From: Gekko japonicus
Taxonomy: Eukaryota
Direction of reading: 5' to 3'
NCBI RefSeq assembly: GCF_001447785.1
Contig: NW_015169777.1
Location: 995,524 to 1,059,523, forward strand
DNA: 64,000 bases
Below, piece by piece: positions 1 through 45,100 of the stretch; position 1 is the first letter of the stretch; each line of letters begins with the position of its first letter. The position numbers and the translations under genes are program-made. The notes under the pieces were generated by a model. The model searched no databases. It saw only the letters and a list, made by a program, of their open reading frames with translations, and was not told the DNA's origin.

Positions 1-6
1 GCCTCC

Positions 7-819
7 ATGGAAGCAATGGAGAAGAGAATGACAGAGGCAATACAAGCCATGGGGGAGCAGATAGAAAAAACATTGGGGGACCAACTGGAGAAGCAAACTC
101 AGATTCATCTGAAACATCTAGAAGAAGTCCAAGAGAAGAACATAACAGCATTGAAGGAATTGGTTACTACAGAAATAACTTCAATCAAGCAAGAAATGGA
201 AGGAGTTAAGAAGGATGTTCAAGCAAATGCAACCAAGACTACAGAGACAGAGGAGAAGATACAAAAAATAGAAGAGAAACAAGATTCTTTGACTCAACAA
301 ATTACAAGATCAGAGACAATGATGGAGTTCAGAAGGATGCAGACTCATCTGAGATTCAGAGGCATTAAGGAAACAGAGAATGAGAACTTAAAAGAAAAAA
401 TGATGGAAGTGATAACGGCTTTTCTGGGCGAGGAGGAAGGGTCAATGGACTCAGACTTTGATTTGATTTATAGAGTGAACTCCAGAATTGCAGAAAAGAA
501 GAATTTACCAAGGGATGTAATTGTACAATTTGTAACAAGATCAATAACAGAGGAGATATTCAAGAAGCAATTCAACGTCCCTTTTGTAATAGAGGGAAAC
601 AAAATTATGGTGATGAGAGAACTCCCAAGAACAATACTGCAAGACAGGAAAAGGTATAAATCCTTGGCGGACAAACTCAGAGCTTTGAGCATCAGATATA
701 GATGGGAGATTCCACAAGGTTTATCCTTTACGTATCAAGGTGGGAGGATTCAGATCAGATCGATGATGGACTTTTATAAATTTAAGGCGGACAATGCGGA
801 CGTCTTTGGAGAACTTTAA
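7..819 (+). CDS. LINE-1 (L1/Tx1 clade) ORF1p; may extend upstream of the window
   Basis: Long coiled coil followed by the RRM/CTD region typical of L1 ORF1p (HLRFRGIKE...IYRVNS...PRDVIVQF...RELPR..LQDRK...YRWEIP). The frame is open back to base 1. Confidence 0.88.
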   Translation: MEAMEKRMTEAIQAMGEQIEKTLGDQLEKQTQIHLKHLEEVQEKNITALKELVTTEITSIKQEMEGVKKDVQANATKTTETEEKIQKIEEKQDSLTQQITRSETMMEFRRMQTHLRFRGIKETENENLKEKMMEVITAFLGEEEGSMDSDFDLIYRVNSRIAEKKNLPRDVIVQFVTRSITEEIFKKQFNVPFVIEGNKIMVMRELPRTILQDRKRYKSLADKLRALSIRYRWEIPQGLSFTYQGGRIQIRSMMDFYKFKADNADVFGEL

Positions 820-832
820 AATAAAACGCATA

Positions 833-3800
833 ATGGAGTACAAATTGTTGTCATGGAATGTTAATGGATTAAATTCACCAAACAAGAGGAAAAGAATCAA
901 TCATTGGATACAGAAACAGAAATGCAACGTGATATGCTTGCAAGAAACACATATTAGAAAACAGGATATAAAATATTTAAAGAATGCTTTATTTGGAATT
1001 GAATTTTGTTCTGCGGCCTCAAACAAGAAAAAAGGAGTTGTGACATATGTGAAGAAGGAGTTACAACCTACAGAAATTTTTAAGGACATAGATGGCAGAT
1101 ACGTGGGTGTGGAATTAATGATTCAGCAGAAAAAAACATTGTTGATCAACGTGTACGCACCCAATGGAGCAAAGGAAAAATTTTTTAAGGATATAACTGA
1201 CCAATTACAACAATTGACTTATGAGCAAGTTATTATGGCCGGAGACTTTAATGGGACAATAGATCGTCTAGACAGAAAACCACAAAAGGACAACGAATTC
1301 AGCGGAAAATTGCCAAAGAATTTTTTTGAATTAGTTAAGCAAGAAAAATTAGAAGATGTTTGGAGGAAATGGAACCCGATGCAGAAAGACTTTACTTTTT
1401 ATTCCAATAGACATTGCTCTTTTTCCAGAATTGATATGATTTGGATGTCTGAAGAATTATCAATGAAAACACATAAGACTGAAATTTTGCCAAGATGTAA
1501 TTCAGATCACAATCCGGTGGTATGGAGTTCCACAGAAAGGAAAAAACCCTTTCTGTGGAGGATTAATGAAGACTTGTTGGATAAGAAAACGGTAATTGAG
1601 ATGTTAAAGGAAGAAACGAAACAATTCTTTCAACAAAATTTAAATAAAGAAACACCGATACAGATTGTATGGGATGCTTATAAAGCGGTGATGAGAGGAA
1701 TTCTCATCTCGCAAAACGTGAAGCAAAAAAAGGAAAAACTTCAAAAACAAACAGAAGTGTTAGAAAAAATTGCTCAGAAAGAAAAGGAATTAAAAAAGAA
1801 GCCTGGAAAAAAGCAAATTATTAAAGAATTAAAGTTGCTGAAGGAACAACTGAATGAGACTTGGAATCAGGAAATGTATTGGAATTTAAAGAAGTTACAA
1901 CAGAAATCTTTTGAAGGGGCGAACAAACCGGGAAAATACTTAGCTTGGCAACTTAAGGCTAGAAGAGAGAGAAGAATGATAACCAAAATAATAGAAGATG
2001 GAAAAGAGTTCGTTGATCCTAATGGAATAAAGAGATGTTTCTTCAAGTATTATGCTAAACTATTCCAAACAACTAGAGTTGATCTTGAGAAGATTAAAAC
2101 ATATTTAAAGGAGATTCCACTACCAAAAATAAGTAAGGAATACAAAGATTTATTAAATGGTCCAATTCAAAAAGAAGAAGTGATGAAGGCAATAGAAGAG
2201 ACAAAGTTGGGGAAGGCGCCTGGGCCGGACGGATTTACAGCGAAATTCTACAAAAAGATGAAAGAAGAAATTTCCCCGGTCCTGGAAGCTTTAACCAACG
2301 AAATAAGAGAAAACAAAAAGGTGCCGGACTCATGGAAAGAAGCAATTATTTCTTTGATTCCAAAGGAAGGACAAGATTCAACAAATGTAAAGAACTACAG
2401 GCCAATATCTCTTTTGAACAACGATTATAAAATCTTTGCAAAAATTATTGCAGAAAGGGTGAAAAACTATTTACAAACGGTAATTTCTGAAGATCAAGCG
2501 GGCTTTTTACCCAAAAGGCAGATTAGAGACAATGTAAGAATAGTAATGGACGCAATTGAATATTATGAAAAGCACCCAGAAAAAGAAGTAGCTTTTCTGT
2601 TTGTTGATGCAGAAAAAGCTTTTGACAATCTTAATTGGAATTTTATGCACCAGATGATGGAAAAGATTGAAGCGGGACAACATTTTAGAAATTGTATTGA
2701 AGCTATCTATTCTGAACAAAGAGCTAAAATAAATGTGAATAAAGAACTGACAGATAACTTCAAAGTACAGAAAGGAACAAGGCAAGGTTGTCCGTTATCA
2801 CCGTTATTATTTATCTGGGTATTGGAAATACTTTTACAAAAAATACAGTACGATCAAGAAATAAAGGGCTTGACACATAAAGGACACCAATACAAATATC
2901 GAGCATTTGCAGACGATGTAATGTTTATGGTGGAAAACCCAACAGAAAAATTGACATTGCTTTTTCAAAAAATAAAGGAGTTTGGAGAATTGGCCGGCTT
3001 TTACGTAAATAAGAATAAAACAAAACTTATATGTAAAAACATGATCAAACAAAAACAAGTGGAACTACAAGAACTGGTACAATGTGAAGTAGTTAAAAAA
3101 ACAAAATACCTTGGAATTGAATTAACGGCAAAAAATATAGACCTATATAAGAATAATTATGAGAAATTATGGACTAAGCTGACTCAAGATTTTAAGAAAT
3201 GGGATAAAATGAACTTATCACTGATGGGAAGAATATCAGTTATAAAAATGAATGTCCTACCACGTTTGATGTTCCTGTTCCAAACAATACCAATTCTGCA
3301 TAAAACGGATTTGTTGGCCAAGTGGCAACAAGAGTTGTCAAAATTTGTTTGGGCAGGCAAGAAACCAAGGATCAAAATGAAAATACTTTGTGATGCCAAA
3401 GAAAGAGGAGGTCTACAAATGCCAAATCTTAGACTATATTATGAAGCGGTTTGTCTAACATGGATGGATCAATGGGTGAAGCTTGAAAATGACAGATTGT
3501 TGGGGTTGGAAGGGCATGATTGTAGATTTGGCTGGCATGCATATTTATGGTATGACAAGATAAAAATGGACAGTTTTTTTAAACTTCACTTGGTGAGAAA
3601 AGCTTTGTATATGGTATGGACAAGATATAAGAAGTACCAGAGTGACTTAAGACCATTGTGGATTGTACCAGTAGAAGTGTTGATATCTTACTCAAGACAG
3701 CGAGGTAGAGACTGGTTGCCATATAGAGATTTAATTAAAAAAGAGGGAACAGAGTGGGTAATGAAAAAGCAGAATGAAATTGAATATGAATATGAGTGGT

Positions 3801-4585
3801 TGAAATATATGCAGATTTATGATCTTTTTAGATCTGACAAAAAAAACTATGGTTTTAGAGAGGAAAAAAATGAAATTGAAAAGGTATGGGAGAGTGGAGG
3901 AGGAAAAAATATTTCTAAAATGTATAAGGTGTTGTTAAAATGGTATACTGAAGATGAAACTGTTAAAGAACAAATGTTAAAATGGGCTATTAATATGAAT
4001 AAGGAAGTGGCTATGGAAACCTGGGAATATTTGTGGAAAAATTCTATTAAGATCTCGACATGTACTAATGTTAAAGAAAATTGTTATAAGATGATGTATA
4101 GGTGGTACATGACACCTAAGAAAATTGCAAATATGAATCAAAATATGTCAAACAAATGCTGGAAATGTAAGAGGCATGAGGGCTCATTTTATCATATGTG
4201 GTGGACTTGTGAGAAAGCTGTAGACTTTTGGACAAAAGTCCACAATGAAATGCAAAAAATATTGAAATGTTCTTTTAAAAAAGCACCGGAAATTCTGCTT
4301 TTGGGACTTAAAATGGAAGAAGTCAATACGACTAAAAAGACTTTACTCTGGTACCTGATAGTGACAGCGAGAATGATTTATGCTCAGTTTTGGAAGACAG
4401 AAAAGGTACCAGAGGTTGAAGAATGGATACAAAAAGTTCTGTTCATGGCACAAATGGATAAGATTACAAAAAAATTGAATAACAAAGAAGACGATGAGTT
4501 TTTTGGAGAATGGAATGACTTTAAAATTTATCTGGAAAAGAACTGGGATGTGAAACAAAACTTAATATGTTTAGATCAATATTAA
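833..4585 (+). CDS. LINE-1 ORF2p (APE endonuclease, reverse transcriptase, CCHC), uninterrupted, about 1250 aa
   Basis: Endonuclease motifs SWNVNGL, LQETH, GDFN, SRID, SDH; RT motifs KAPGPDG, YRPISLLN, DAEKAFD, GTRQGCPLSP, FADD, KYLG; C-terminal CWKC..H.WW.C. Likely start is ATG 833 (MEYKLLSWNV). Confidence 0.95.
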   Translation: MEYKLLSWNVNGLNSPNKRKRINHWIQKQKCNVICLQETHIRKQDIKYLKNALFGIEFCSAASNKKKGVVTYVKKELQPTEIFKDIDGRYVGVELMIQQKKTLLINVYAPNGAKEKFFKDITDQLQQLTYEQVIMAGDFNGTIDRLDRKPQKDNEFSGKLPKNFFELVKQEKLEDVWRKWNPMQKDFTFYSNRHCSFSRIDMIWMSEELSMKTHKTEILPRCNSDHNPVVWSSTERKKPFLWRINEDLLDKKTVIEMLKEETKQFFQQNLNKETPIQIVWDAYKAVMRGILISQNVKQKKEKLQKQTEVLEKIAQKEKELKKKPGKKQIIKELKLLKEQLNETWNQEMYWNLKKLQQKSFEGANKPGKYLAWQLKARRERRMITKIIEDGKEFVDPNGIKRCFFKYYAKLFQTTRVDLEKIKTYLKEIPLPKISKEYKDLLNGPIQKEEVMKAIEETKLGKAPGPDGFTAKFYKKMKEEISPVLEALTNEIRENKKVPDSWKEAIISLIPKEGQDSTNVKNYRPISLLNNDYKIFAKIIAERVKNYLQTVISEDQAGFLPKRQIRDNVRIVMDAIEYYEKHPEKEVAFLFVDAEKAFDNLNWNFMHQMMEKIEAGQHFRNCIEAIYSEQRAKINVNKELTDNFKVQKGTRQGCPLSPLLFIWVLEILLQKIQYDQEIKGLTHKGHQYKYRAFADDVMFMVENPTEKLTLLFQKIKEFGELAGFYVNKNKTKLICKNMIKQKQVELQELVQCEVVKKTKYLGIELTAKNIDLYKNNYEKLWTKLTQDFKKWDKMNLSLMGRISVIKMNVLPRLMFLFQTIPILHKTDLLAKWQQELSKFVWAGKKPRIKMKILCDAKERGGLQMPNLRLYYEAVCLTWMDQWVKLENDRLLGLEGHDCRFGWHAYLWYDKIKMDSFFKLHLVRKALYMVWTRYKKYQSDLRPLWIVPVEVLISYSRQRGRDWLPYRDLIKKEGTEWVMKKQNEIEYEYEWLKYMQIYDLFRSDKKNYGFREEKNEIEKVWESGGGKNISKMYKVLLKWYTEDETVKEQMLKWAINMNKEVAMETWEYLWKNSIKISTCTNVKENCYKMMYRWYMTPKKIANMNQNMSNKCWKCKRHEGSFYHMWWTCEKAVDFWTKVHNEMQKILKCSFKKAPEILLLGLKMEEVNTTKKTLLWYLIVTARMIYAQFWKTEKVPEVEEWIQKVLFMAQMDKITKKLNNKEDDEFFGEWNDFKIYLEKNWDVKQNLICLDQY

Positions 4586-15005: not shown

Positions 15006-15113
15006 TTAGCTGTTAAGAGCAGCTTGAATGTCCTGGATGCGTGTGCTGTAGTTCTGCATCTCTTCTCGCTCTTCTCCAAGTTGGCTTGTGAGGGATTGGA
15101 TCTGCACTTTCAG
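15006..15113 (-). CDS. SFI1: SFI1 last coding exon
   Basis: [35 protein letters not shown]; aligns to the human C-terminus. Confidence 0.9.
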   Translation of the reverse strand: MKVQIQSLTSQLGEEREEMQNYSTRIQDIQAALNS

Positions 15114-21100: not shown

Positions 21101-24100
21101 CCCTCTACCTCCACCAGCCTTAGAGGCTGTATCTGGCATTGGCACCTTGAACGAAACTCGCTTCTTGAGTGGGGCCCCTGGAAGAGAGAGGCCTCGCTTC
21201 TGGCAGAGAGCCTTCTGCTTCCAGAGCATGGCACAACGATAGACCAGATGGTGGTGGTGGCTAGCCATCTGCAATTGGAAAACAGCAGTAGACTGTGGGG
21301 TGCATGGAAGACAGGACTACAAGGGAAGGGAACAGGTGCTCCTCAGTGTGCTCCAAAAAAGAGATGGGCAGGCAGACCTAATGGACTGATCATGAGTCCT
21401 TGGCCTGGATCACACATATCGAGCAGCACCAGGATAAAGTCAGGCTAGCACCTGTTACCCATCTCATCCCTTCAGGATGCAGCTCACTCTCTTTTGGCTA
21501 AAGCCACTGAGCTGAGCTAAGGCACTAAGAAGATGGGATTCAAGTATGTGTGTGTGTTTGGCTTTATCCAGATCTGGACTCCTTTAGTGCAAATTGGACC
21601 AAAACCAGGATAGTGCCACCAACACCCAGGAAATTCCAGCAAGAAATATTTTCCCAGTATAATGCAGGAAGAAATGCTTCCAGGCCCATCTCAACTAGAT
21701 ATGTGCACTAGAGAGACAGGAGGCTGAGATAACTCTTCCCATTTTCTTGCTCCCCCCCCACCTCAACTAGAGACAGGGCTGTCCTCTCAGGACTTGCAAT
21801 GACCATGCATAACTTCTAAGTGATATAAGAGCTAACATGGATTGGAGTCCTTTATGCAATTGGTGATGGGACAAATTGGCTTTTTGCTGCCCTACAGGTG
21901 ACAACCTGACTTTCCATCAGGGAAAAATGACAGCTTTGCTAGCGGCTTTGGGCTTCCCAAGTCATCCATCTTGTCCTGAAGCACAGCTGGGGATCCAATT
22001 ATCCCTTCCAGCAAATACACCTGTATTATTTCAGCATCAGAGCAAACCACACTCCCAGAGATAAGGCTGCGGGATTCTAAGGCATATGTTTGCTATCACA
22101 AGAGCACCAAGCTCAGCCTATGCTGCACAAGTCCTCGGTCACATGAAATGAATATACCCTAACTACTGACTCAAGTCTTAATTGAAAAATTCTCCTGTGA
22201 TCTAAGCTAAACCTCTGCAGCCTTGAAGGATTAAGACGAAGCCCAAGTCTGGTGCAGCAGACAGCACGTGATGTTTGAAAATGGGAAACCCAGAACCAAG
22301 CTAATTTTTGGCTGTGGAACCTGCCTGGGGGACCACTGTTGTGCATCCTATCATTCTGCTCTGCAAAACTGGAAGCCTTCCTCCAGCCAAGGAAGCCTTC
22401 CATCTTAAGTTGGAGCAGAAAGTTTCCCAGTGTTGCTGAACGGAGTTCTAGCAAGGGGCCATTCTCTCTTAGGCATATACAGTACTTTTTCAGCATGGGA
22501 TCCCCTGAAGAAGAAAAAACATGCTCAGTCATGTGTAAAGACTGCATCGGCCCAATTCTGAGTAGTCCGGGAAGGCTCAGGACGGTCCTGAAGCCCATCC
22601 CACTCTTTTTACCTTCAGCTGGTGCTGGGCCTGCAGCTTCCCTCGGAATTGCTTCATGCCAGCTGCATATCTCAGAATGCGCGTCACACCCTCCCGCAAC
22701 AAGTCAGACCGGTAAACCTCCGCAGCTTTCTGTATGCGGGACTTTTTCCGTCGCCATTCCAGGACAGATCCTACCCAAGCATCAAATACCTGCAGTGAAG
22801 GCACACAAGAGACTGGAATGGAACACTGCACTTAACCAGAGGGTTTCTTCTCATTGGTGGAATGGAGACCCTTGGTGTAGCCACTGAACTATTTGGATGG
22901 CAGGTGCTCCAACTGTAATGAGTCCTACTATGTGAGACTGCCACCCAGGATGCCCTCAGCTTTTTAGCATCCCTCTCAAGAATACCCTTCTCCTTCAGGG
23001 TTTATTATCTTTGGTGGAATGACGTTAGACTCCCAAGCGATGTGTGATTCCTTGGACTTTTACTTCTCAATGCAACATAAAGAGTTGGAAAGAGAGGGGG
23101 AAAGACGCTTTGGCCCTTCCCACACTGGTGATTTCCCCAGGTTTCTTGCTGTTGGGAAGTTTTCTTCTCACTTACCCACAGTATCACAGTGCCACTGGGG
23201 AGGGGCTGTAGCTCAGTGCTAGACCATCTGCTTTCCATGCAGAAGGCCTCATGCTCAATCCCCAGCATATCCGTTTGAAAGGACCAGGTAAGAGGTGATG
23301 TGAAGGACCTCCACCAGAAACCCCAGAGATCTGCTGCCAGTCTGAGTAGGCAATACTGAATTCTATGGACGAATGGTCTGATTCAGTATAAGGCTACGTC
23401 ATGTGTGTTCACCTGGGCTTTCCTGTATTTTCTGCGATCTTTCCTAACCCTGCTTTGCTCTGACGTTCTGGGAAACATCACATTTTCCACATTCTGCCTA
23501 CACAGTACCCATTCCCCCTGCCCTAGTCCCTACAGCAGCTACTCCCCCCTCCCGCCTGCATGCCACAAGGCATTGAGTTTGTTTTTCAATCAGCAGTTGA
23601 CATCTCAGAAAAAGTTTCCCCCTGTAGTGCAGGAAGGATCGGGAAATGGCCACCACGGGGGGGGGGGGAGGATGGGAGGGCTGCCATCTGGAAGCCCCCT
23701 TGCCACTGGGCTGCATCAGCAGCTGTAGAAACACCAGGGTTTCCATACGGAAGCGCTGCCGCGGGGGGAAGTCCTTCGTGCTCTCACTGCTCGACTGCCA
23801 CTGAGCCTCTTCCTTCCCAACTGTATGGTGCTAACTCATTATTTCTCACTCCGGGATACCACGTCTTACCTTCCCCTGCAGCGAGAGGGACCAGTGCCAC
23901 AGCGCTCGCACAGTTTCCTGCTGTTCCCACCGCCTGTGTGCCAACTGTTGATGAGGGGAAAAAAAGGCCCCACATAAGCCCATGTGGTCCTGGTTACCAA
24001 GTTGTACAGTTTGCAGGCAACAAACTCAGCCGGATACCGAAGAAAGGGATAGTAACAGAAGATGGTCAGATACACAGCTCAGTATCCTTTTAAAGGATCT

Positions 24101-33100: not shown

Positions 33101-36100
33101 TAAGTTCTGTGCTGCACCCAGGGGGTAACAGCAAACAATGCAGCCAGTGGGAAATGGTCACCAGAGCAAAAAAAAAATCAGAGGAAAAGGCAGCGATCAA
33201 GAGGAATAACTGGACAGGCTTAATGAGCCTGATGTGGCTTGTGGCTCAAAGATGCAAGATCACCATTGATGTGGCATTTACAGAAACAAAAAAAGAAAGC
33301 AGGCATTGTTATCCTCTTATAACTCTTTTACCCTTCTTTCATCTCCTGAATGTTCTCCTTCCAGAGATGAAAAGTCGCCTGCAAGATTTGGTGACAGTAA
33401 TGTTCTTGGGCCAGGGTCTCTTCCTCTTGCTCTTCTATATGCGCCACAGTTCTCCTGCACCATAAATACCAGAAGCGGGCCAGCAGCTGTTGGTCAGAGT
33501 GTAGAACAGCCTGCCAAGAGAGGAGAGTACCAGGGAGAGCAGTCAATATTGACAGCACTAGCGTCATCAGAGATTATCATAACCACAGAAAAATTCCCTT
33601 ACACGGCTACCTATGCTACAGGGTGAAAATGAAAAACTGGATTTACTGTGAGGGTTTCTTTTCATAGGTGGAAAAAGGATATCCTGGCGAGGATTCCTCC
33701 ACCTACTTACTTCAAAGACAGAGTGTTGCAAAATGGACAGCATCTTGCTTTCCTGTGGGACGACCTCCCCCCCATTTCAGTGCTTTCCTCATCAGAGAGT
33801 CACCAAGAATAATAAACTTATGCTGCAGTCCTAAGAACACTTTATTGGGAGTATGCCCAACCTGGAGCCTTTACTATTTGTCTAGGGTGACATGGATTTG
33901 AGTGACAAGGATGAAAAAGCAGCTGTCTGCTTTGATTTTGATTTCTTGGTCAGCATTATGACAGATCTGATCTTGCAGTGTCTGAGAATGGAGGAAAGAA
34001 GCCATAAAAAATTGATGGTCTAGCTGTTGATTATTGAAATGGCTGAACAGCACTCTGGGATGCCATGTTCCTTCAACAGTGGGACAGCTCTCCACAAATC
34101 ACAAGGAAAAGAGACTTGGTCTGTTTTGCATAACCCTCCCTGTGCAGCAGCTCTGACGGAACATGTGAAACAGCCTTATATGGAGTCAGAGTATTGGTCT
34201 GTCAAGCTCAGTATTGCCTACTATGATCAGCAACAGCTTTCCAGGGTCTTTCACATCACCCACTACCCAATCCTTTTAACTGAAGATGCTGAGGATCTTC
34301 TGCATGCAAACCAAGTGTTCTACCACTGTGCCACAGCTTCACCCCTCAGCAAGAGGCATAACTCTCACTAGGCTATCTTCCTGTAGTGATGGAAAAGTGT
34401 CATACCTGCTCAAAATGCGCTCATTCACAAATGTGGAAACTGCCTATTGTCTGGCGAGGAGTACGGGGGGGGGGGGACTAGAATTACCATTTTTTCTGCC
34501 ATGTGGTTCTCTTGCTGCCGATGTGTTCTCAGCTGCCACCTGTCAAATAAACGTCTTGTCCATGTTTCCCTGCCAAGCAGCAAGAATGACCAATGAGCTC
34601 AAGGGTCTCCAAGAAAAGATTTCTATGTCCAGGACACAGGTGTTGTAATAAAGAGCCCAAAAGATTAGGTAACAATTTGTCTGGGTTGGGTTTTTTTTAG
34701 TTTCCATTATGCTTTTATTACTGCACTTATAATTTTTATCGATTGCAACTTTTATGGTTCTAAAGGATTTTCTTTTAGCTGATTTTGTAGTGTTTTATTT
34801 TATTTTATTGGTTAAAAGCTCTATACATTCCATTAGGCCTTTTATATGCAGAGGTGGGATCTAAATATGGGTTCCTGAATACAGATATGACACTCCCCTG
34901 CAAACAGAAAAACAGAAGAGCCAGCAAAAGCCCAGGTAGAACTTTTCTGTCTTATGTGCTAGAACAGGCCACCCCCAGTGTTTTTGACCCTGTGAGCACC
35001 CTTAGAATTCTGACACAGAGTTGTGGGCTCAACTGCAATATCACTGCTATGGGAAGCAGAGCCAACCACAGTATGTCCGCGAGTGAGGACATGCATAACT
35101 CTAATAGTAAATCTTCAACATTTCAGGCAGAAGCTCCGCTTCATGGGATGCCTTCTTGAATGAATGTATTGTTTTCAAGTGAAGATCCTTGTCCTGTGGT
35201 GGCAGCTGCCAGCAAAGCAATGTTTTTTTAAAAAAAACAATCAGCTCTCCAATGGCCAGCTGATGCTCTGCTGGGCAAAGGCCACACCCACTTTCGAAAA
35301 AGACTTGGCTAGCACCAGGAAAGGTGATGGTCAGTGTCATGCTGGAGATCCCTGAGCTACAACCTTTCTTGTTGATGTGGTGCAGTCACTACTGAAATAT
35401 ATTCGATGCCCTAAAAGCAAACAAGCAAGCACACAAAAAAATCTAACCAAAAAAAATAAACCAAAAGAGAAAGGAAAGAGAAGGCATTGGGCAGATTTGG
35501 GGTGGTGGTGGTGGAAGAGGGATTCAAAAACAGAGACAGGAAAAAAGAAATTTCCAGAGAGTTAAGGAGCAAAATCTCAAACGGCATCCAGCTATGGAGC
35601 AGACAAAACTGGAACTGGGAAGTCTCCCCCCCCCCTCAGGCTGGGATTAACATTCAGCCAATTAACATTGCCATGCCTGTGCAGCAATCAAGAGAAGTAA
35701 CCTGGCCTGGAGTTCCTCCTCCGCCAACAGAGAAGTTCTTTTTCCCTCTGAAGTACTAGGCTGCCACAGTAGTGTGTGAAAGAAAAAGAAATCCCTTTGC
35801 ACAGTCCCCTTCATAAGAATATGTACAAGGACTCTGTCTCCTTGCATAGCATCAAGATGAATGACTGATCTAGTTTAATGTTTCCAACTCTGCTAGAGAC
35901 TGTGGAGGTATTTTTGGCTCTGCCACCAGAGATTTCTTAAGAGAAGTTGATGTCAAGAAGAAGAAGAGTTGGTTTTTATACCTCGTTTTTCTCTACCCTA
36001 GAGAGTCGCAAAGCAGCTGACAATTGCTTTCCCTTCCTCTCTCCACAACAGTCACCTTGTGAGGTATGTGGGGTTGAGAGAGTTCCGACAGAACTGTGAC

Positions 36101-39100
36101 TGGCCCAAGGTCACCCAGCAGGCTTCATGTAGAGGAGTGGGAAATCAAACCCAGCTCTCCAGATTACAGTCTGCCATTCTTAACCACTACACCATGCGGA
36201 ACAAGTTACTTCGCATATGCAGTCATTTACAGAGTTCTTCAGCAGCATTCTCCTTTTAGTTAAAAGCTGTTCATAAGAACAACCCACTGTACCTGTGAAA
36301 GCACATGGCTGTACTTTTCATCTCTCTCCACCAGCACTGATGAGCCCTGAATCGCTTCCAGGCTTGGAATGTGGCAGGCAAGATTCTTCTCCCATAGTGA
36401 GCATCCGCCTCTGCATACTGCAACTGAAGAAAAATGGTAGCCTTAGTGTGGATTTCAGAGCAGGAAATAGAGCTGTTATATTGAGGAAATGCCAAAGTTT
36501 GAGGTAACTGAAAGAGAGACAGACAGATACAATATATACCATGACTAAAGTGGGAAGCATCAAACTAGAGACTTGCTTTTTGTTATTAGGGGNNNNNNNN
36601 NNNNNNNNNNNNNGAGCAGAGAAGACCTTCTCACTTTGAAAATGGGTGCCTTGAAAACAAACAGATTAGAAAGGAAAAAGTGTTAACAAACGTACAGAAA
36701 GAATTTAAATATGCTCCAGAATTGGATGATGTTGGATTATGACCCACAACTGTACTGTGCCAGTGCAACTACTTTAAAAAAAAAAGAAAATGGGCAGTCA
36801 TAGAGAAAGAATAAGAAAGACACACATACAAGGCTATACAGATGAAAAGATAAAAACTAGGTAAAGTGAACATGCATATATAACAACAATATGGATCCCA
36901 TGTGGAGAAATGGAACTGTGTTCTGAAAAATTTGAAGATTACTGTGCTATGGAATGACTCCACCCGAATGACTCCACCCCTTACCTTTCTGTACCTTTTC
37001 CAGCTTGCATGATATAACCAGGTCAGGAAACATTTTTGCAGTAACACCAGGCTGCAATAGACATAGTACCTTAGAACACAGGCTACATGATTTTATTAAA
37101 AGTCTGGCACAGATACACAAATTCTTTGTAAAATGGCTGGCAGCTATGCCTGCATAAACCACATCAGTTTCTCGATCACACAGGGACTTTCGCCACCTAG
37201 TGGCAAATGGATCTAAGTTAGACGTGAACAATGTTTAAAGGATAGATGTATTGCTGAAGCCAACCAAAAATACCCCTTGTTGCCTTTACCCCACCCAAAG
37301 GCACCTGCTGTAGCTCTGTCTCTAAAATGAGGCAGGTCCAGGCCTGGCTAGTACTGGGGATGGGGGAAATTCAATATGCAACCAAAGGTCCTGGGAGGAA
37401 AGGTGGGAAATTAATATTTAAAACAAAAATAAAGAATAGGCAGTAACAAGAACAATCCCTTTCATGATAAAATTGGATTCAAAGATTACAACAGCGGGAT
37501 GCATTGCAGCTTTCAAAAGAGCAGTCGCTAACGCCAGAGTTTCATTTTTACAGCTGTATTTATTTATGCCCTACACTACCTGTAGTGAGAACGAGCTGCC
37601 AGAGTCAGACACCAATGCTGTGCTTCCTCCTTCCTTTCCAAGGAAGACTTCCAACAATTCCAGAACCTCTGCAAGAGCTGGGGGGGGGGGGGGGCAGAAA
37701 AGAGACACAATGTGCAGGACAATCAAATGAGGAGTCCTTCTACAATGAAAAAAGTAGGACATTATCTTTTTAAAGCAAAAACACTATTTGCAACAACCAA
37801 GCTAACATCTAACCTGAATGGTAAAAGAATGCATCCTGACAACACTGACTTGCCCAATTACACATATAGTCACCAAGTGATTTATAGTACACATATATGG
37901 TGTCTGTGCTCCAAAGAAACTTCCCCTCATGGACCAGGGGAGGAACACTCATCAGGTGCAAGCCCAGATGCAGCAAAGTGTTACTCAGAACTGGCAACAG
38001 GATGCCTGAGTGTGGCTGCTGCCAGAGTGGGAGTGACTTGGGCATGGGCCATCTAGGCATGTCCCTGGCGAAGCTCTGACTTCTGGGAGTGGAAGGTGGG
38101 GGGGCGAGTCCCTACACAGTGGTGATGCTGTTGTCATGGAACCAACTGTAGCTAACCTTACCCAGAAGGACAACAGGCTTACAAGAAATAACCATACCTG
38201 CGTAGTATAAAAGCCAGACCAGTCAAAGCTAAAGATGACCCACTTGGGGCTGCTCAAGAAACACAACAAGAGAACCATGAGAATGAGAAAGTGTCATAAA
38301 CCCCCTCCTTTCTTTGTCTGAGGGAGCTTTTGGGTTGAAGTGGGACTACACTTAGCCTACAGGGTGAAAGTTATAATGATCCAGATTAATTGTGTTTCTC
38401 CTTTTTTGAGCCCTAATTTTGTAAAGAAATATTATTGATTTATAAATTATTGATTTATTATTATAAATTATTGATTTATAAGGTATTCTTAGTGGGCGGG
38501 GGTGCGTTCCACTATTTATGGTCCAAGTACCTGTCAAAAATATCCTATTGGTATTTTCCAGATATAATTTGGCATCTAGATGGTACCTGGGATACTGGTA
38601 AGTGGTTCCTGAAACACTGTGTAAATATTCAAGAGTAACTGGAGGAAAATGTTTTCTGTAGCTCAGCATTCTACTTGCAGAGAACAACTCAGTGATCTAA
38701 CATGACTCTTTTGCTGACGAAGTAAGAAAGTAGGAAGGCTCAGGACGCAGATTTTGTAGTTGCAAGATGAAATAAGGTCTTACCATAACTTGATGCTGCT
38801 GAAAAGCTAAATTTCTTCTCATTTGCTTGATGCTTGCTTCCGCCACATTTTTTTGTAATGCGGTAAATCCACGATACTGTGAAAAGCAGAAACACCAGTA
38901 GCCTAAATCACAAAGCTCATAATATAAGACAAACCTGCTGAAAAGGGCAAAGGTGTTCTTATCCTAGATGCCTTTAAAAATTGAATATGTCTGCCAATAG
39001 CTCACATTTTCACGGAATAAATGGAAATGGCAGTATGCATATAAATACCTATGATAGGTGGTGGGGGGGGGACACTAGTGGAAAGACTGGTAACTTCATG

Positions 39101-42100
39101 AGAGCTGGTGTGCTATTTAGTGGATGTTAACATCAAATGGAGTCTGGGGAGATCCAAGTCCAAATCTCCACTCTACCATAAAGCTCACCGCATGGCCTTG
39201 GACAAGTCACTGTCTCTCAGCGTTGTGAAACTAAAAGAGAACAGGGTAAGAAACCATGTACATCACTCACATCCTTGAAGGAAAGATGGGAACACGCAGG
39301 CTTAGATCGATTCCCTTTCCACAAATGGAAGGGAAAGCATATTCACCAATTTCCCCTCCCCTTCCTCTGCAGACCTCCGACTCCCCCTTCATGCTGTTCT
39401 GGGGGGGGGGGTAACTGTAGAAGGAGAGCAAGTTGTGCTCTGAGAGTGGAAATCCTTTCCATCCTGCAAAGTGCTGGTGAAACTGAACTATAAACAGATC
39501 TGCTTGTGGCCTTTTCTGGAATCATCTGGTTAGACACTATGGAAAGCCAGGATGATCAATAAGATGGTCTGATCCAGCAGGACCCTTTTTGTTTACCATC
39601 TGTAACTATCAGCTTTGTACAGATGTGGCCTCTACCATGAGACAAGGTGAGGTAGCAGCCTCAAGCGGGAAATTTTGGCTGCAACAAGTGAGTGCAGACA
39701 AGGCACAATCTACCAGGAAGGTCTACACAAACCTATTCATATGAATGGAAAAATCACATGAGAACTAGCTATAAAAGTGTACCATGTGCAGTAGAAGCAA
39801 GCACATGTTTCCAGCCCTGTACCTCCTAAAGGTACCCAGCTAGGATTGGCCAAAGCTTCCTTCTGCTTGTAAACAAGCAAGGAATTGCCACCACGTAATA
39901 TGCAAAGGTGCCCTATGTGAGGATCATAAATGCAGGAAGCATCTTTCATCGGTCAAAAGTTATTTTAAAGAAGCCAGGCTCTGCAAACTTCTTACCAGCA
40001 GGAGGTGTCTGTAATGGTGTTCAGCTAGCTCCCGATGTTTAGCTGCTTCAGTACACAGTGACACATCCATTACATGGGTTAAAGAAAAAACCTGCATTTA
40101 CTTTTTTGGATCAGATAAATGCTGTATAGTTTATCACAGGCATTCATAACACGAGAGGCATCAAAATATAGCAGAATGCAAAACGTTAATAGGGAGGAAT
40201 CAACATGGGAATTATGGAAGTTTTAATTATTTTAAATCACTGCAGCTCAATTTTTACTTTTAATTTTATGAGGATGTGTCTGTTAAAAAAATTGCATGCA
40301 GCCCTGCATACGGAACAATCTATATACTAATAGTGAAGTCGCCCCCGTGCGTGCGGATACCTAAATCCGCGCATCGGGGGCACCTGGGGGGGAGGGAGAT
40401 TTTCGTGCACACTTGGGGCAGTCCCCAGGTGTGCACAAAAATCTGAAAACTGTAAAAAACTATAGGGGGATACTTAAATCCCCCCAAAACTACAACTACT
40501 TGCTCTGGGCATGCGCAGGGAACTCACTGAGGCGCGAGAACAGCGCGAGGGAAGCCCCCACAGCACTAACCCTCCCGGCTGCTCCTCCAACTTCCCTGCA
40601 CAGAGAACAGACTCACCCTTGGAAACTGTGGCGGGTTGTGCAAGGAAGCTCCGAGGACTTCGCCTCAGCACTGCTTCTGCCTGTTACCAGCCTCAATTGT
40701 TTGGAATTGTCAGCCTGGCTGCCCTTCGCCCGTTCCATCTTTCCCCTAGTGAGGGGTCGCCAGCCAGCTCTGGTCTCCTCCCACCCACTTGGCCCGNNNN
40801 NNNNNNNNNNNNNNNNNNNNNNNNNNNNNNNNNNNNNNNNNNNNNNNNNNNNNNNNNNNNNNNNNNNNNNNNNNNNNNNNNNNNNNNNNNNNNNNNNNNN
40901 NNNNNNNNNNNNNNNNNNNNNNNNNNNNNNNNNNNNNNNNNNNNNNNNNNNNNNNNNNNNNNNNNNNNNNNNNNNNNNNNNNNNNNNNNNNNNNNNNGTG
41001 GTGGAGGAGACGGGGAACCGAGGGGATCGGGGGGGAAGCTTATCTGCTTCTTCCTCCTCCACCTGCTCTGTGTGGAGCTTCCCCGCTCCTCCCCCCGCTA
41101 TTTTCACGGGTCCCCTTTCTTGTTATATATAAATATTCATCATTGAGTCTCAGAGGTTAATTATTATTCCCTAAAAATGCTGGCCCATGTTTTAATAATT
41201 CCTTCCATTAATCTGTATTTCCAACTGGGATCCTGTTGTACCTTTGTGGTGAAGCAGAACAGTTAAGCATGTGCTCCATCCATAATTCTCTGAAGATCTG
41301 CATCTGACCTACACCAGATTTCTTTGAAATGTGGTGTTGAAATGTGGAGTTGGAGGAGAGTTTTACAGATACTGTGGGCTGCCAAAAAGACAAATAAGGG
41401 GGTTCTAAATCAATCAAGCCTGAACCCTCCCTAGAAGCTAAATGACTAAACTGAGGCTATCATACCTCGGTCACATTACTGAGAAGACAAGAGTCACTGG
41501 AAAAGACAATAATGCTAGGAAAAATTGAAAGCAGCAGGAAAAGAGAAACACCCAACATGAGATGCATTGACTCGATCAAGGAAACCATGGCCCTCAGTTT
41601 GCAAGACCGGAGAATGGCTATTAATTATAGGACATTTTGGAGGACATTAATTCATAGGGTTGCCGACTTGACAGCACTTAACACATACAGTCCTTATAAA
41701 CTTTTGCACTTACTATGGTCAAGTCAAGAACCAGGACGCTGATTCAATTTCAGGTGGGTAACCTGTTGGCCTGCAGGAGAAGAGCAAGATTTGAGTCTCG
41801 TATAGTACCTTGAAGACCATCAAGATTTGCAGGGTATAAGATTTTGAGAGTCAAAGCTCCCTTCATCAGATACTGGTAGGAACAGCTCGTACTACTTGTA
41901 TCTACAAAGGGAGCTTTGACTCTTGAAAGCTTATACCCTGGAAATCTTGTTGGTCTTTAAGGTACTACGAGACTCAAAACTTTCTCTTATGCTGATCCAG
42001 TGGATCAGAAAACCAAGTAGTGAGACCCAGTTTTTGTTTCCATCCTGGAATCTGTAATGTGCCTGTTATAACACAAGAATGATCCTCCTGGTCGTTTTCT

Positions 42101-45100
42101 GCACACATAGTGCCGGATCCAACTCTTACTGTTCACTTTATCTCCCAAATCTCTGCAAAAGGACTATGAGAGAAAGGATACAGAATTTCCATTGCAAGAA
42201 GGCTCTTCTCAAGGCAATCCTGGCTGCCAGCTGAGCAATGCGTTCCTGATGTACGTGCAATTGCTGTTTGCGTTCCCAAGCCAGGTGCCATGACAAGAAA
42301 AACTGAAGGAGCATGCAGCTATGATGGTGTTGCAAAGCCAGCTCTGGAAAAAGACACACACAAATTGCCCCAACTACTATAATATCAGGATCCAGGTTTG
42401 GTATGCAAGCATAAGGCTGAGAGAGGTTTTGATATTAAGCAGAACTGAGGATGAAAGTAATGGCCGGTATTTATGCTATGGATCAAACTGTTTGGTTACC
42501 TGGTGAATTTTCCTTCTACTTGTTTGCCTGACAGTGGTCCAGACCCCACAGGGTTCTCACCTCTCTGCCCACAAGAAGGCAGCAGGTTGACTTTAAAGAA
42601 CAAACAAACTGGCTGGAGATAGACAAGGAGGCATCTACCTAACACTTAGCTACCAGTAAGACATGATTCATTAACCGTAAGACATTTATTCATAAATCTA
42701 TTCCTCAAGATGAGATCAGATTCACCATTGTGCATTTTCTCAATAGATTTTCTCTTAATCTAGCAACTCATTTTCTTTTGGATTTGTTTTGGATTTGCTT
42801 CTGAGTGCTGGTGGACTCTCTGCAACAGCATAGGGGGTGAAGAGTTAATCTGAGGTAGGAAATAGGAAATCAGTGGAAATAACGGCCCGCTTCTAAGAAA
42901 ATGTAAGGGCCCTTAAATCTTTGGAACCACCAGGCTGTTTCAGTCCCATAACCAGGCCTGAAACCAGATTGGAAAGGAGCCTGTGGAGCAAGTAGGAGGA
43001 GTAAGTCTCACCAAGATACCTTTGTTTCTTGACAGAGAATATCTAAAGCTAGATTCAAAGGAATGCTCTTATTGCCACATATAGGAATTTGTCCCTGGTC
43101 ACACAATGCTCATGTTTATAAGAGAATCAGGTTAGAGTCTATGATGAACACTTAAGGGAATAGGACTGTCCCAGTGGAACTGCTCCCACTGAAATTATCT
43201 ATGAAGGGTTTCCTTGATATGTATGCATGTTTTGCCCTCACAGATACCCAGCTGTGATTAGCTATTGAACCCTTTGTCTCATACAGCAGTAAATTCATTT
43301 CTTTGGGTAAATATTCAGTTGCATTCTATTTAACTCTTCCATAGAGACTTCTGTGTGGCCTGACAATTCCCACAGTCCTTTACAGTCAACTGTTCCAGAA
43401 TACTGCTCAGCAATTCCGGCACAAGCCATCTGTGCTTTCATTACCCAGGATCAAGACTATTTCACTCAAAACAGATACATTAGTATACTGCACTAGAAAT
43501 TAATCCCATTTTGTCACACACTTTTATTTTCAACTCACTGTGCTGATGCTTCTTCTCTCTTCGGAGACGCACATAGACATGCCAGGATTTCAAAGAATTC
43601 CCTATCTTCCTATGACGGTAATGCATCAGTGCCCTGACTTCCTTCTCTTTCATATTCTGTATATATGAACAGACCTCCTTCCACCGCAGCCAGGCCTGAT
43701 ATCAGAAGAACAGAGGATCAACAGGAAGAATGAATGGCCAGGAGCAAGGAAATGACAGGAAAGCAGAGCAAGGGAAAGCTTACACCAGACACAGAAGGGA
43801 AAAATGCAAAATGTCAGCCATACATTCTCCCCGTTGAAAGTTGTGTTCTATTACTCATCCCCACTAACTTAGGCAAAAGAGTTCTCGTTCATAGCAGTCT
43901 CTCCCTTCAGACTACTGCACTTTGTTCTTTCACACAACAGAACTCATCCAGTCATCTCGATTTTTATGTCATTCTTGTTTAAGGAAAAACAAAATCCAGA
44001 CCTCGCGTGTAATAAACTGAAACCAGATTAGAATCTCCATACTGAACAGAGAATGGAGGGATGGCCATCAGCCATGACAATTCTATGAAACCAAAAGTAG
44101 AGGTGATAAACCTTTGCAACAGAGTAACATGGCTACCCCTCTAGAGTACACCTTCAAGTAACAATTGCGAAGACAGATAACAAAGGCCAGCCCCTGACTT
44201 TGTGCATTCTGTGTAAGTTTACAGAGGCATTCAAATGGCCAATGTCTCAAATAAAATGGTATGATCCAACAAGCTTATGTTCTTAAAGAAGTGACACCTG
44301 TAATTACTAGTAGTAGCTGCTAAGTTCTGTATCATTTTATAACAACTGTATTAAGTATTTTAATCTAAAGCATGCAAAATTTAAAAGACTCATATTTCTG
44401 GCACTCACCCGAAACTGCAGACCCAGGGTCCATTGCTGTAGAGCTTGAGCATCCATTTCACAGCTAACTTGGACTTGGCACCATCTCCTTCTCCACAGTT
44501 TCCATGACATGCTGTTAAAAACAAGTTTTAGGACATTTAATTTTTTTTAACTTTGCAGTCTGCAGCAAGGAATTATAAAAGCAAGGAGTTCTGCAAACAG
44601 CTGCTGAAGACCTCATACCTAGGGATAGGCACAAACCAGCTCATGAACCAAAATCTGGGTTGAACTTGAGCCGGTTCGGAGCTCAGGAACTGATGTTCGA
44701 GGAAGACACCTTCCCCGAACATTTAGTGGACTTTTGGCCAGTTTGGTATGGCTGTTCGTGGCCAGCAATTTAAACTTGACAGCTGAGTGGCATGGGGACC
44801 CGCTGAGTGGCTGGCGGACCCACTCAGCTGTTAAGGGGTTTTTTGCATGTTTCTGAGTATATGTGCTTGCGAGCCTGTAAGTCATGGTGATGACCCATAG
44901 TGGGGCTAGGTCATTTCAGAGCGGTGGTTTACATTACCTGCCTGTGTGTCCTGGCCCTGGTATTCCTCGGATGCCACCCTTCCAAGTACTTGCCAGGGTC
45001 GGCCCTGCTTAGCTTCTGAGATCTGATGAGATTGGGCTTGTCTGGGCTATCCAGGTCAGGGCTCGGCTATGAAGTTTAAATGGCTGAGAGCCACTAAACC

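Follow-up and report, generated by a model that had tools for sequence, protein, structure and literature searches.

SFI1 and its intron at 40067–42181

The window, the 64-kb stretch of gecko DNA analysed here, carries on its minus strand the centriole gene SFI1, whose coding span was mapped by tblastn with gecko SFI1 proteins to 31 exon blocks between positions 15006 and 57036. A 162-nt exon (42182–42343, minus strand), which is the eighth coding exon mapped, the first residues of SFI1 being unmapped, is followed by an intron of 2115 nt including a 201-N gap (40067–42181, minus strand) and then by a 71-nt exon (39996–40066, minus strand) that leads into a U2-type GT donor. On the basis of sequence and joined frame, this intron was assigned GT-GG ends; the other 26 of the 27 SFI1 introns have GT-AG ends. 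With the GG acceptor in use, 28 of the 31 exon blocks gave a single open frame of 1132 amino acids. Over the 211 residues that precede the junction, the window protein aligned without gaps to Eublepharis and Sphaerodactylus alike, and its alignment to Eublepharis continued ungapped across the junction.

The donor GTATCCTTT (42173–42181, minus strand), described as a perfect U12 5' splice site in the first-pass annotation, indeed matched the U12 donor pattern RTATCCTT at 8/8 positions and is the same as that of the human SFI1 minor intron; the exon before it ends in CT, with U at –1 and no AG at –2/–1. A branch-point motif, TTCTTTAAC (40078–40086, minus strand; the branch A would be that at 40079 or 40080), matched the TCCTTAAC-like U12 branch-site consensus (PMC2831892) at 8/9 positions and is located 12–13 nt before the intron end. 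The putative 3' splice site, GG at 40067–40068 (minus strand), has the spacing that had been reported for it, 12 nt after A40079. No pyrimidine run was found between the branch site and the GG, and the pyrimidine fraction there, 0.57, was tied for the lowest among the 27 SFI1 introns. U12 introns lack a distinct polypyrimidine tract, and the exon upstream of them ends without AG and with U favoured at –1.

Classification relied on simple match counts to the donor and branch patterns, and just one of the 27 introns, that at 40067–42181, combined a full U12 donor with a correctly spaced branch site matching at 8/9 positions, the best values among the other 26 being 6/8 for the donor and 7/9 for the branch site. 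Given that both motifs occurred at chance level across the 64-kb window (three donor motifs versus 1.29 expected, and seven branch motifs versus 4.0 expected), we dropped motif rarity as an argument and relied instead on position within the intron. Judged by its sequence features, namely the donor, the branch site, the absence of a polypyrimidine tract, the non-AG exon end, and a minor-class ortholog, the intron is of the U12 type. A U2-type intron with a GG acceptor, of the kind seen in BANP and RBFOX2, was considered and rejected, with the donor reading GTATCC rather than GTRAG, no tract being present, and the nearest downstream AG lying 21 nt away.

Reads from X21, X22, X23, and X18 were placed on positions 38600–44600 at 87% likeness, and intronic repeats dominated these placements. 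Summed RNA depth, from three raw runs of one study with few reads per bin, was 6.4–9.5 on the flanking exons versus 0.48 in nine unique bins of the intron. At the boundaries, the two bins contained 308 and 470 read-letters, compared with 274 and 457 expected for spliced RNA and 1531 expected if the boundaries were transcribed through. RNA depth thus fits exons with the intron removed, with GG as the inferred acceptor. The suggestion that the GG end limits SFI1 expression found no support in this low-depth coverage, in which neither end of the intron was retained in excess. Among the joints listed (15 of 289), all were repeat-derived and came from the run of organism B, and among the rows with other letters that were listed (40 of 754), none fell at 40067–40068.

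The intron interior contains a GC-rich, partly repetitive segment with the 201-N gap (40291–41168) and a palindromic high-copy repeat (41774–41994). The former segment is absent from a contig of related organism B, which spans from 41169 to 40290 with approximately 48 letters in between, so that the N gap falls in an insertion that organism B lacks.

Junction in homologous proteins and in gekkonid kin

Both flanks of the junction could be aligned for 62 of 71 named homologues, and the junction was free of insertions and deletions in 59 of these 62, counts that are not independent because the sequences are mostly predicted models, many of them isoforms or from close kin. Of the remaining three, two were bird models shorter by one residue and one was misaligned to a repeat. 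Among 73 further representatives, 45 were scored and 42 of these were indel-free; one representative, P0096, showed a gap of approximately seven residues, the size expected from use of a downstream AG. Almost all homologues have Tyr at the junction position, with marsupial SFI1 models reading W-K-H-Y-M-L-I across it, and Rhineura and turtles have models in which the 162-nt exon is skipped. Together with the splice signals and the 1132-residue open frame, the 59 of 62 indel-free named homologues uphold the initial reading of a U12-type intron for which GG is the best acceptor.

Heteronotia and Paroedura, both Gekkonidae, form a clade with the window sequence (99/99) and are its closest kin. SFI1 of Paroedura is represented at NCBI by two models, halves of 347 and 997 amino acids, and that of Heteronotia by a COOH-terminal half of 916 amino acids, all of them broken at the U12 intron, in agreement with the expectation that gene predictors would mis-annotate it; no NH2-terminal half was found for Heteronotia in protein searches. 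The Paroedura NH2-terminal model continues past the donor with C-I-L, indicating that the U12 donor is kept in this species, and the peptide read through the donor is identical over 13 residues between the window and Paroedura. The Paroedura COOH-terminal model starts with the translated 3' end of the intron, which is 13/20 identical to the window upstream, reads F-S-L-T over the stretch of branch motif TTCTTTAAC, and is 7/8 identical from the branch site to the GG.

The Heteronotia model begins with M-D-V-S-L-C, and its start codon corresponds in the window to an ATG (40068–40070, minus strand) that lies in frame with the downstream exon, within the ATGG of the intron end. The models of both kin read Met-Asp at the intron end, which can be encoded only by ATG G followed across the junction by AY, and GG is therefore common to Heteronotia and Paroedura, in which it was read from protein models, AG being presumed in the outgroups. 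A base error at the GG is unlikely because both kin have it. The GG-ending intron likely explains the split NCBI models of both species.

Acceptor choice and alternative explanations

We consider it very probable that the SFI1 intron, with its U12 donor and branch site, ends in GG and is cut by the minor spliceosome exactly there, the full-length frame thereby being kept. U11 and U12 would bind the SFI1 donor and branch site, as is established for U12 introns, and the 3' end would be picked mainly by its distance, with GG at 12–13 nt falling at the optimum of 11–13 nt past the branch site (PMC3584512). GG would also retain the terminal G, the A at –2 being its sole difference from AG. The intron end offers no usable AG near the GG: the upstream AG (40092–40093, minus strand) lies 5' of the branch site and, as first pointed out, would add 25 nt and shift the frame, with an early stop following, and the in-frame AGs downstream would remove 7, 8, or 14 residues, the first two of these losses having been anticipated.

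Splicing mainly to one of the two nearest in-frame AGs (40043–40047, minus strand; exon start at 40045 or 40042) would make gekkonid SFI1 shorter by seven or eight residues. These AGs provide a canonical intron end and leave the frame open, and the gap in P0096 has the matching size, but their distances from the branch A, 33 and 36 nt, are well past the optimum, and their pyrimidine tracts are weak (fractions of 0.57 and 0.43). The seven codons that would then be intronic are identical at 7/7 positions in Paroedura and 6/7 in Heteronotia, compared with 13/20 in the true intron, and a loss of 7–8 residues was seen in none of the 62 named homologues alignable on both sides. Use of a downstream AG as the main site is therefore very unlikely.

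We assign an equally low probability to a minor-spliceosome cut displaced by 3 nt, at TG (exon start at 40063) or AA (40069), which would change the protein by one residue. Both sites are in frame, GT-TG U12-like junctions occur in human, choice of the U12 3' site has been described as error-prone, and the two bird models lack one residue at the junction. The distances from the branch A are nevertheless 15 nt for TG and 9 nt for AA, versus 12 nt for GG, both cuts drop the Tyr found in almost all homologues, and the AA cut also loses the terminal G. Minor use of TG or AA beside GG may occur.

The split NCBI models of Paroedura and Heteronotia could also be taken at face value, with inefficient splicing causing gekkonids to make an NH2-terminal half that ends in the intron and a COOH-terminal half that starts at the ATG at 40070. 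This ATG is in frame and has G at both –3 and +4, and the 13 identical residues read through the donor would be consistent with such an arrangement. On the other hand, Paroedura has retained both U12 signals even though the adjacent intron sequence has drifted, exon-level RNA coverage stops short of both intron ends, the sequenced part of the intron contains no AATAAA and its first ATTAAA lies approximately 1 kb in, and the long frame that the Paroedura COOH-terminal half has in the intron is interrupted in the window. We regard two half-proteins as extremely unlikely. Least probable of all, despite the six N gaps in the window, one of them within the intron, is that GG is an assembly error for AG or that the gap conceals the true structure, given that ATGG at the intron end is encoded independently in the models of two other species and that the organism B contig runs across this region without the insertion in which the gap lies.

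Origin of the GG end and known GT-GG introns

Under the favoured explanation of a minor-spliceosome cut at GG, the SFI1 intron would be an ancestral minor intron in which a single A-to-G change at –2 was likely fixed in the gekkonid ancestor, the ancestral state presumably being AG; gene predictors that accept only AG would then fail to join the exons and would split the gene. A-to-I editing was rejected as a means of rescue by reasoning, in that it makes A resemble G and cannot turn GG into AG. We also considered whether the change at –2 has been kept for a function, with loss of the AG blocking major-spliceosome skipping of the 162-nt exon and so tying SFI1 to minor-spliceosome processing, and with ATGG supplying an in-frame ATG in good context for a COOH-terminal SFI1 fragment from intron-retaining transcripts. 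We view this as improbable; if true, one base would couple minor-spliceosome activity to full-length versus split centrin scaffolds.

U12 introns with GT-GG ends are already known as a class, accounting for 0.216% of conserved animal minor introns. Examples in human include TCTN3, C18orf8, and PLCD4 (Parada et al. 2014, PMC4176328 supplement), with the heavily used junction in the cilia gene TCTN3 being GENCODE-annotated and supported by 1484 reads from 16 tissues, and two further cases are ARAF, GT-GG in both human and mouse, and SLC12A7, GT-GG in human and GT-AG in mouse (Sheth et al. 2006, PMC1557818 Tables 2–3). All five resemble gecko SFI1 in combining a U12 donor with a GG end, and SLC12A7 shows the same kind of AG/GG switch between lineages as that proposed here. 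The human set differs in gene and lineage; for gecko SFI1 the GG junction is putative, and the models of its kin are split rather than annotated. The GT-GG 3' site of BANP (Parada et al. 2014) likewise arose from an ancestral AG and was retained across a clade, but it is U2-like and alternative, whereas the SFI1 site is of the U12 type and has no nearby fallback AG.

In our literature search, no paper described an SFI1 intron ending in GG, and SFI1 has no entry in the supplements of PMC7507305, PMC10853781, and PMC10639083. The new element seems to be a likely gekkonid AG-to-GG switch and the break in annotation that comes with it, the GT-GG U12 class itself being already known, and knowledge of the minor spliceosome is unchanged by the SFI1 case. 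The locus would offer an example from nature, extending across a clade, of a minor intron that lacks the A of AG; the ortholog of the gene is listed among those with minor introns. It would also allow distance-based selection of the 3' site to be compared between gekkonid GG and the intron end of other geckos, presumably AG. Split SFI1 models would falsely pass for gene fission or truncation and would conceal the intron from minor-intron surveys based on annotation.

Additional files 1 and 8 of Olthof et al. (2019, PMC6717393) catalogue a minor intron of this gene in human and mouse, and human SFI1 levels are high in testis and spleen. The human intron is very likely orthologous to that of the gecko, since its donor context, ACT followed by GTATCCTTT, matches the His-Tyr junction. 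It is probably GT-AG, given that the human non-canonical list (Parada et al. 2014, PMC4176328, supplementary files other than file 1) has no SFI1 entry, and it is retained upon DDX59 knockout (PMC12095793).

The U12-type intron of SFI1 and its 3' end

A tblastn search located SFI1 between 57036 and approximately 15006 of the minus strand, and the peptide of the exon upstream of the intron in question matched gecko SFI1 proteins in a protein search. CT forms the last two bases of that exon, which stops at 42182, and the U12 donor GTATCCTTT follows at 42181; a U12 branch motif, TTCTTTAAC, lies at 40086–40078, and GG, the putative intron end at 40068–40067, is 12 nt past A40079 and 13 nt past A40080, all on the minus strand. 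The description of these elements in the first-pass annotation, including a GG located 12 nt after A40079, was accurate. The donor motif (3 in 64 kb versus 1.29 expected) and the branch motif (7 versus 4.0) occur at chance level, so that their rarity was rejected as an argument and the weight lies in their positions rather than in their presence. A match to 8/8 donor positions together with 8/9 branch positions was found for only 1 of 27 delimited SFI1 introns, that at 42181–40067, which was also the only one with a non-AG end. Two more exact U12-donor-like 9-mers, at 24082–24090 (plus strand) and 33674–33682 (minus strand), coincide with no mapped exon end, and their number is within chance.

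We translated all downstream exon starts from 40100 to 40031. In-frame intron ends near the branch site were AA (9 nt), GG (12 nt), TG (15 nt), AC (21 nt), and AG (33 and 36 nt), with GG alone yielding Tyr followed by Val without an indel. Both flanks were alignable in 62 of 71 named SFI1 proteins, the other nine being split, skipping, partial, or alternative models; the junction spacing expected for GG was exact in 59, one residue shorter in two bird models, and misaligned to a repeat in one. Among 73 unnamed distant representatives, 45 exceeded the score threshold and 42 of these had no indel at the junction, with the remaining three aligning on the left side only, on the right side only, or with a gap of approximately seven residues. 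Given that most of these homologues are predicted models, and that isoforms and close kin are included, the counts overstate independence. Joining of 28 exons from 50705 downward with the GG acceptor (a join that omits three upstream blocks, one of them touching an N gap) gave a single open frame of 1132 residues, the product of which showed 76–88% identity to four gecko proteins and an ungapped junction in the Eublepharis alignment as printed.

The intron is of the U12 type and, on the basis of DNA and homology, belongs to the GT-GG class, with GG as its predicted acceptor. We consider it highly probable that splicing occurs chiefly at GG 40068–40067; use of a downstream AG is improbable, as is, to the same degree, a splice site 3 nt away from GG. 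The donor and branch site would define the intron for the minor spliceosome, with the 3' end being picked by its distance from the branch site, and GG at the optimal distance (12–13 nt) would retain the terminal G. The last G of an intron pairs with the first.

RNA depth and intronic insertions

Reads from three raw RNA runs bearing the species label of the window, and from a single DNA run of a relative (organism B), were aligned to 38600–44600. RNA depth summed over the three runs was 6.4–9.5 on five exons flanking both sides of the intron and averaged 0.48 in nine unique intron bins. The boundary bins contained 308 and 470 read-letters, compared with 274 and 457 expected for splicing and 1531 for an intron end transcribed at exon level. 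At a few reads per bin from a single study, this depth speaks against the intron being retained or the gene yielding two separate transcripts. True gene fission or intron retention is very unlikely. The same sparse, single-study depth gave no sign of throttling and so offers no support for the suggestion that the intron could limit SFI1 expression.

A GC-rich, partly high-copy segment at 40291–41168, which contains a 201-N gap, is absent from a contig of organism B; this contig bridges 41169 and 40290 with an intervening stretch of about 48 letters, so that the gap sits in an insertion missing from B. The segment is likely a recent insertion within the U12 intron. A palindromic repeat of about 220 nt at 41774–41994, with arms about 90% complementary and very high copy by read depth, is MITE-like in shape.

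The intron end in related geckos

In a tree of the COOH-terminal half of SFI1, the window grouped at 99/99 with Heteronotia and Paroedura, both Gekkonidae, to the exclusion of Sphaerodactylus (Sphaerodactylidae) and Eublepharis. The NCBI SFI1 models of both closest kin break at the U12 intron. The 347-residue half of Paroedura reads beyond the donor into the intron (C-I-L-S-L-I...), with 13 residues equal to the window read-through, and the opening 29 residues of its 997-residue half are the translated 3' end of the intron. Over this 3' end, residues identical to those of the window number 13 of 20 upstream and 7 of 8 over the branch site and GG, ending in Met-Asp. For Heteronotia, our protein searches yielded only a 916-residue COOH-terminal half, which begins Met-Asp-Val-Ser-Leu-Cys. 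Met-Asp can be encoded only as ATG GAY, whereas AG would require a codon ending in A; GG therefore precedes the exon in both species. A spliced first exon is excluded for Paroedura by the collinear match to the intron, and the start of the Heteronotia model was assumed likewise to be continuous with the intron end. Sharing of GG by two kin renders a base error in the window unlikely, and an assembly error is the least credible of the alternatives. Mis-annotation by gene predictors, as had been anticipated, is evident in these split models, which likely need correction.

As judged from these translations, the donor, branch site, and GG are better preserved than the surrounding intron. All 13 residues of the opening 39 nt of the intron (42143–42181, minus strand) are the same in the window and Paroedura, compared with 13 of 20 near the 3' end, and conservation at the intron start may extend well past the 9-nt donor. 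Within the ATGG intron end, the ATG (40068–40070, minus strand) is in frame, is flanked by G at positions –3 and +4, and is the start of the Heteronotia model.

Known GT-GG introns and the ancestral state

The premise that U12 3' sites are chosen by branch distance and that non-canonical ends exist is supported by PMC3584512, according to which the donor and branch site define a U12 intron, there is no pyrimidine tract, the optimum for the 3' end is 11–13 nt from the branch site, and non-canonical ends function, often with lower efficiency. GT-GG U12 introns are already an established class, of which the SFI1 intron is, on DNA and homology, a further case. Sheth 2006 described five in human and three in mouse, with that of ARAF conserved between the two and that of SLC12A7 ending in GG in human and in AG in mouse (PMC1557818); in Parada 2014, U12_GTAG-like rows with GTGG number 8 of 29 (full sheet) and 3 of 15 (filtered sheet), TCTN3 and C18orf8 among them (PMC4176328); and Larue and Roy 2023 counted 159, or 0.216% of conserved animal minor introns (PMC10639083). 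SFI1 is a minor-intron gene in human and mouse, with the same donor as here (PMC6717393; PMC12095793). In the literature searched, which also included PMC2831892, PMC7367187, PMC10853781, and the TOGA2 preprint, we found no report of a GG-ending SFI1 intron, although subscription papers, bioRxiv supplements, file 1 of the Parada 2014 supplement, or online minor-intron databases may list one; a search of the supplement of PMC7507305 did not return SFI1, and the gene is missing from the human non-canonical intron list in the Parada 2014 supplement (PMC4176328).

SFI1 models are unbroken in Sphaerodactylus, Eublepharis, and other amniotes. Those of Rhineura, Pelodiscus, and Chelonia skip a 162-nt exon and join to the same acceptor, to which the Pangshura model joins from a different donor. 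If gene predictors accept canonical intron ends only, the landing of the Rhineura and turtle models at this site suggests AG at the outgroup acceptor. From these models we infer that AG was probably the ancestral intron end, with a likely switch from AG to GG in gekkonids. The value of the SFI1 intron lies in this likely switch and in a concrete annotation failure. The skipping or earlier-donor joins of the Rhineura and turtle models would pair a U2 donor with the 3' end of a U12 intron. Outside SFI1, window positions 1–4000 have a low GC content (0.33–0.36) and a plus strand strongly skewed in both GC and AT, unlike the remainder, and possibly represent a retroelement or coding stretch.
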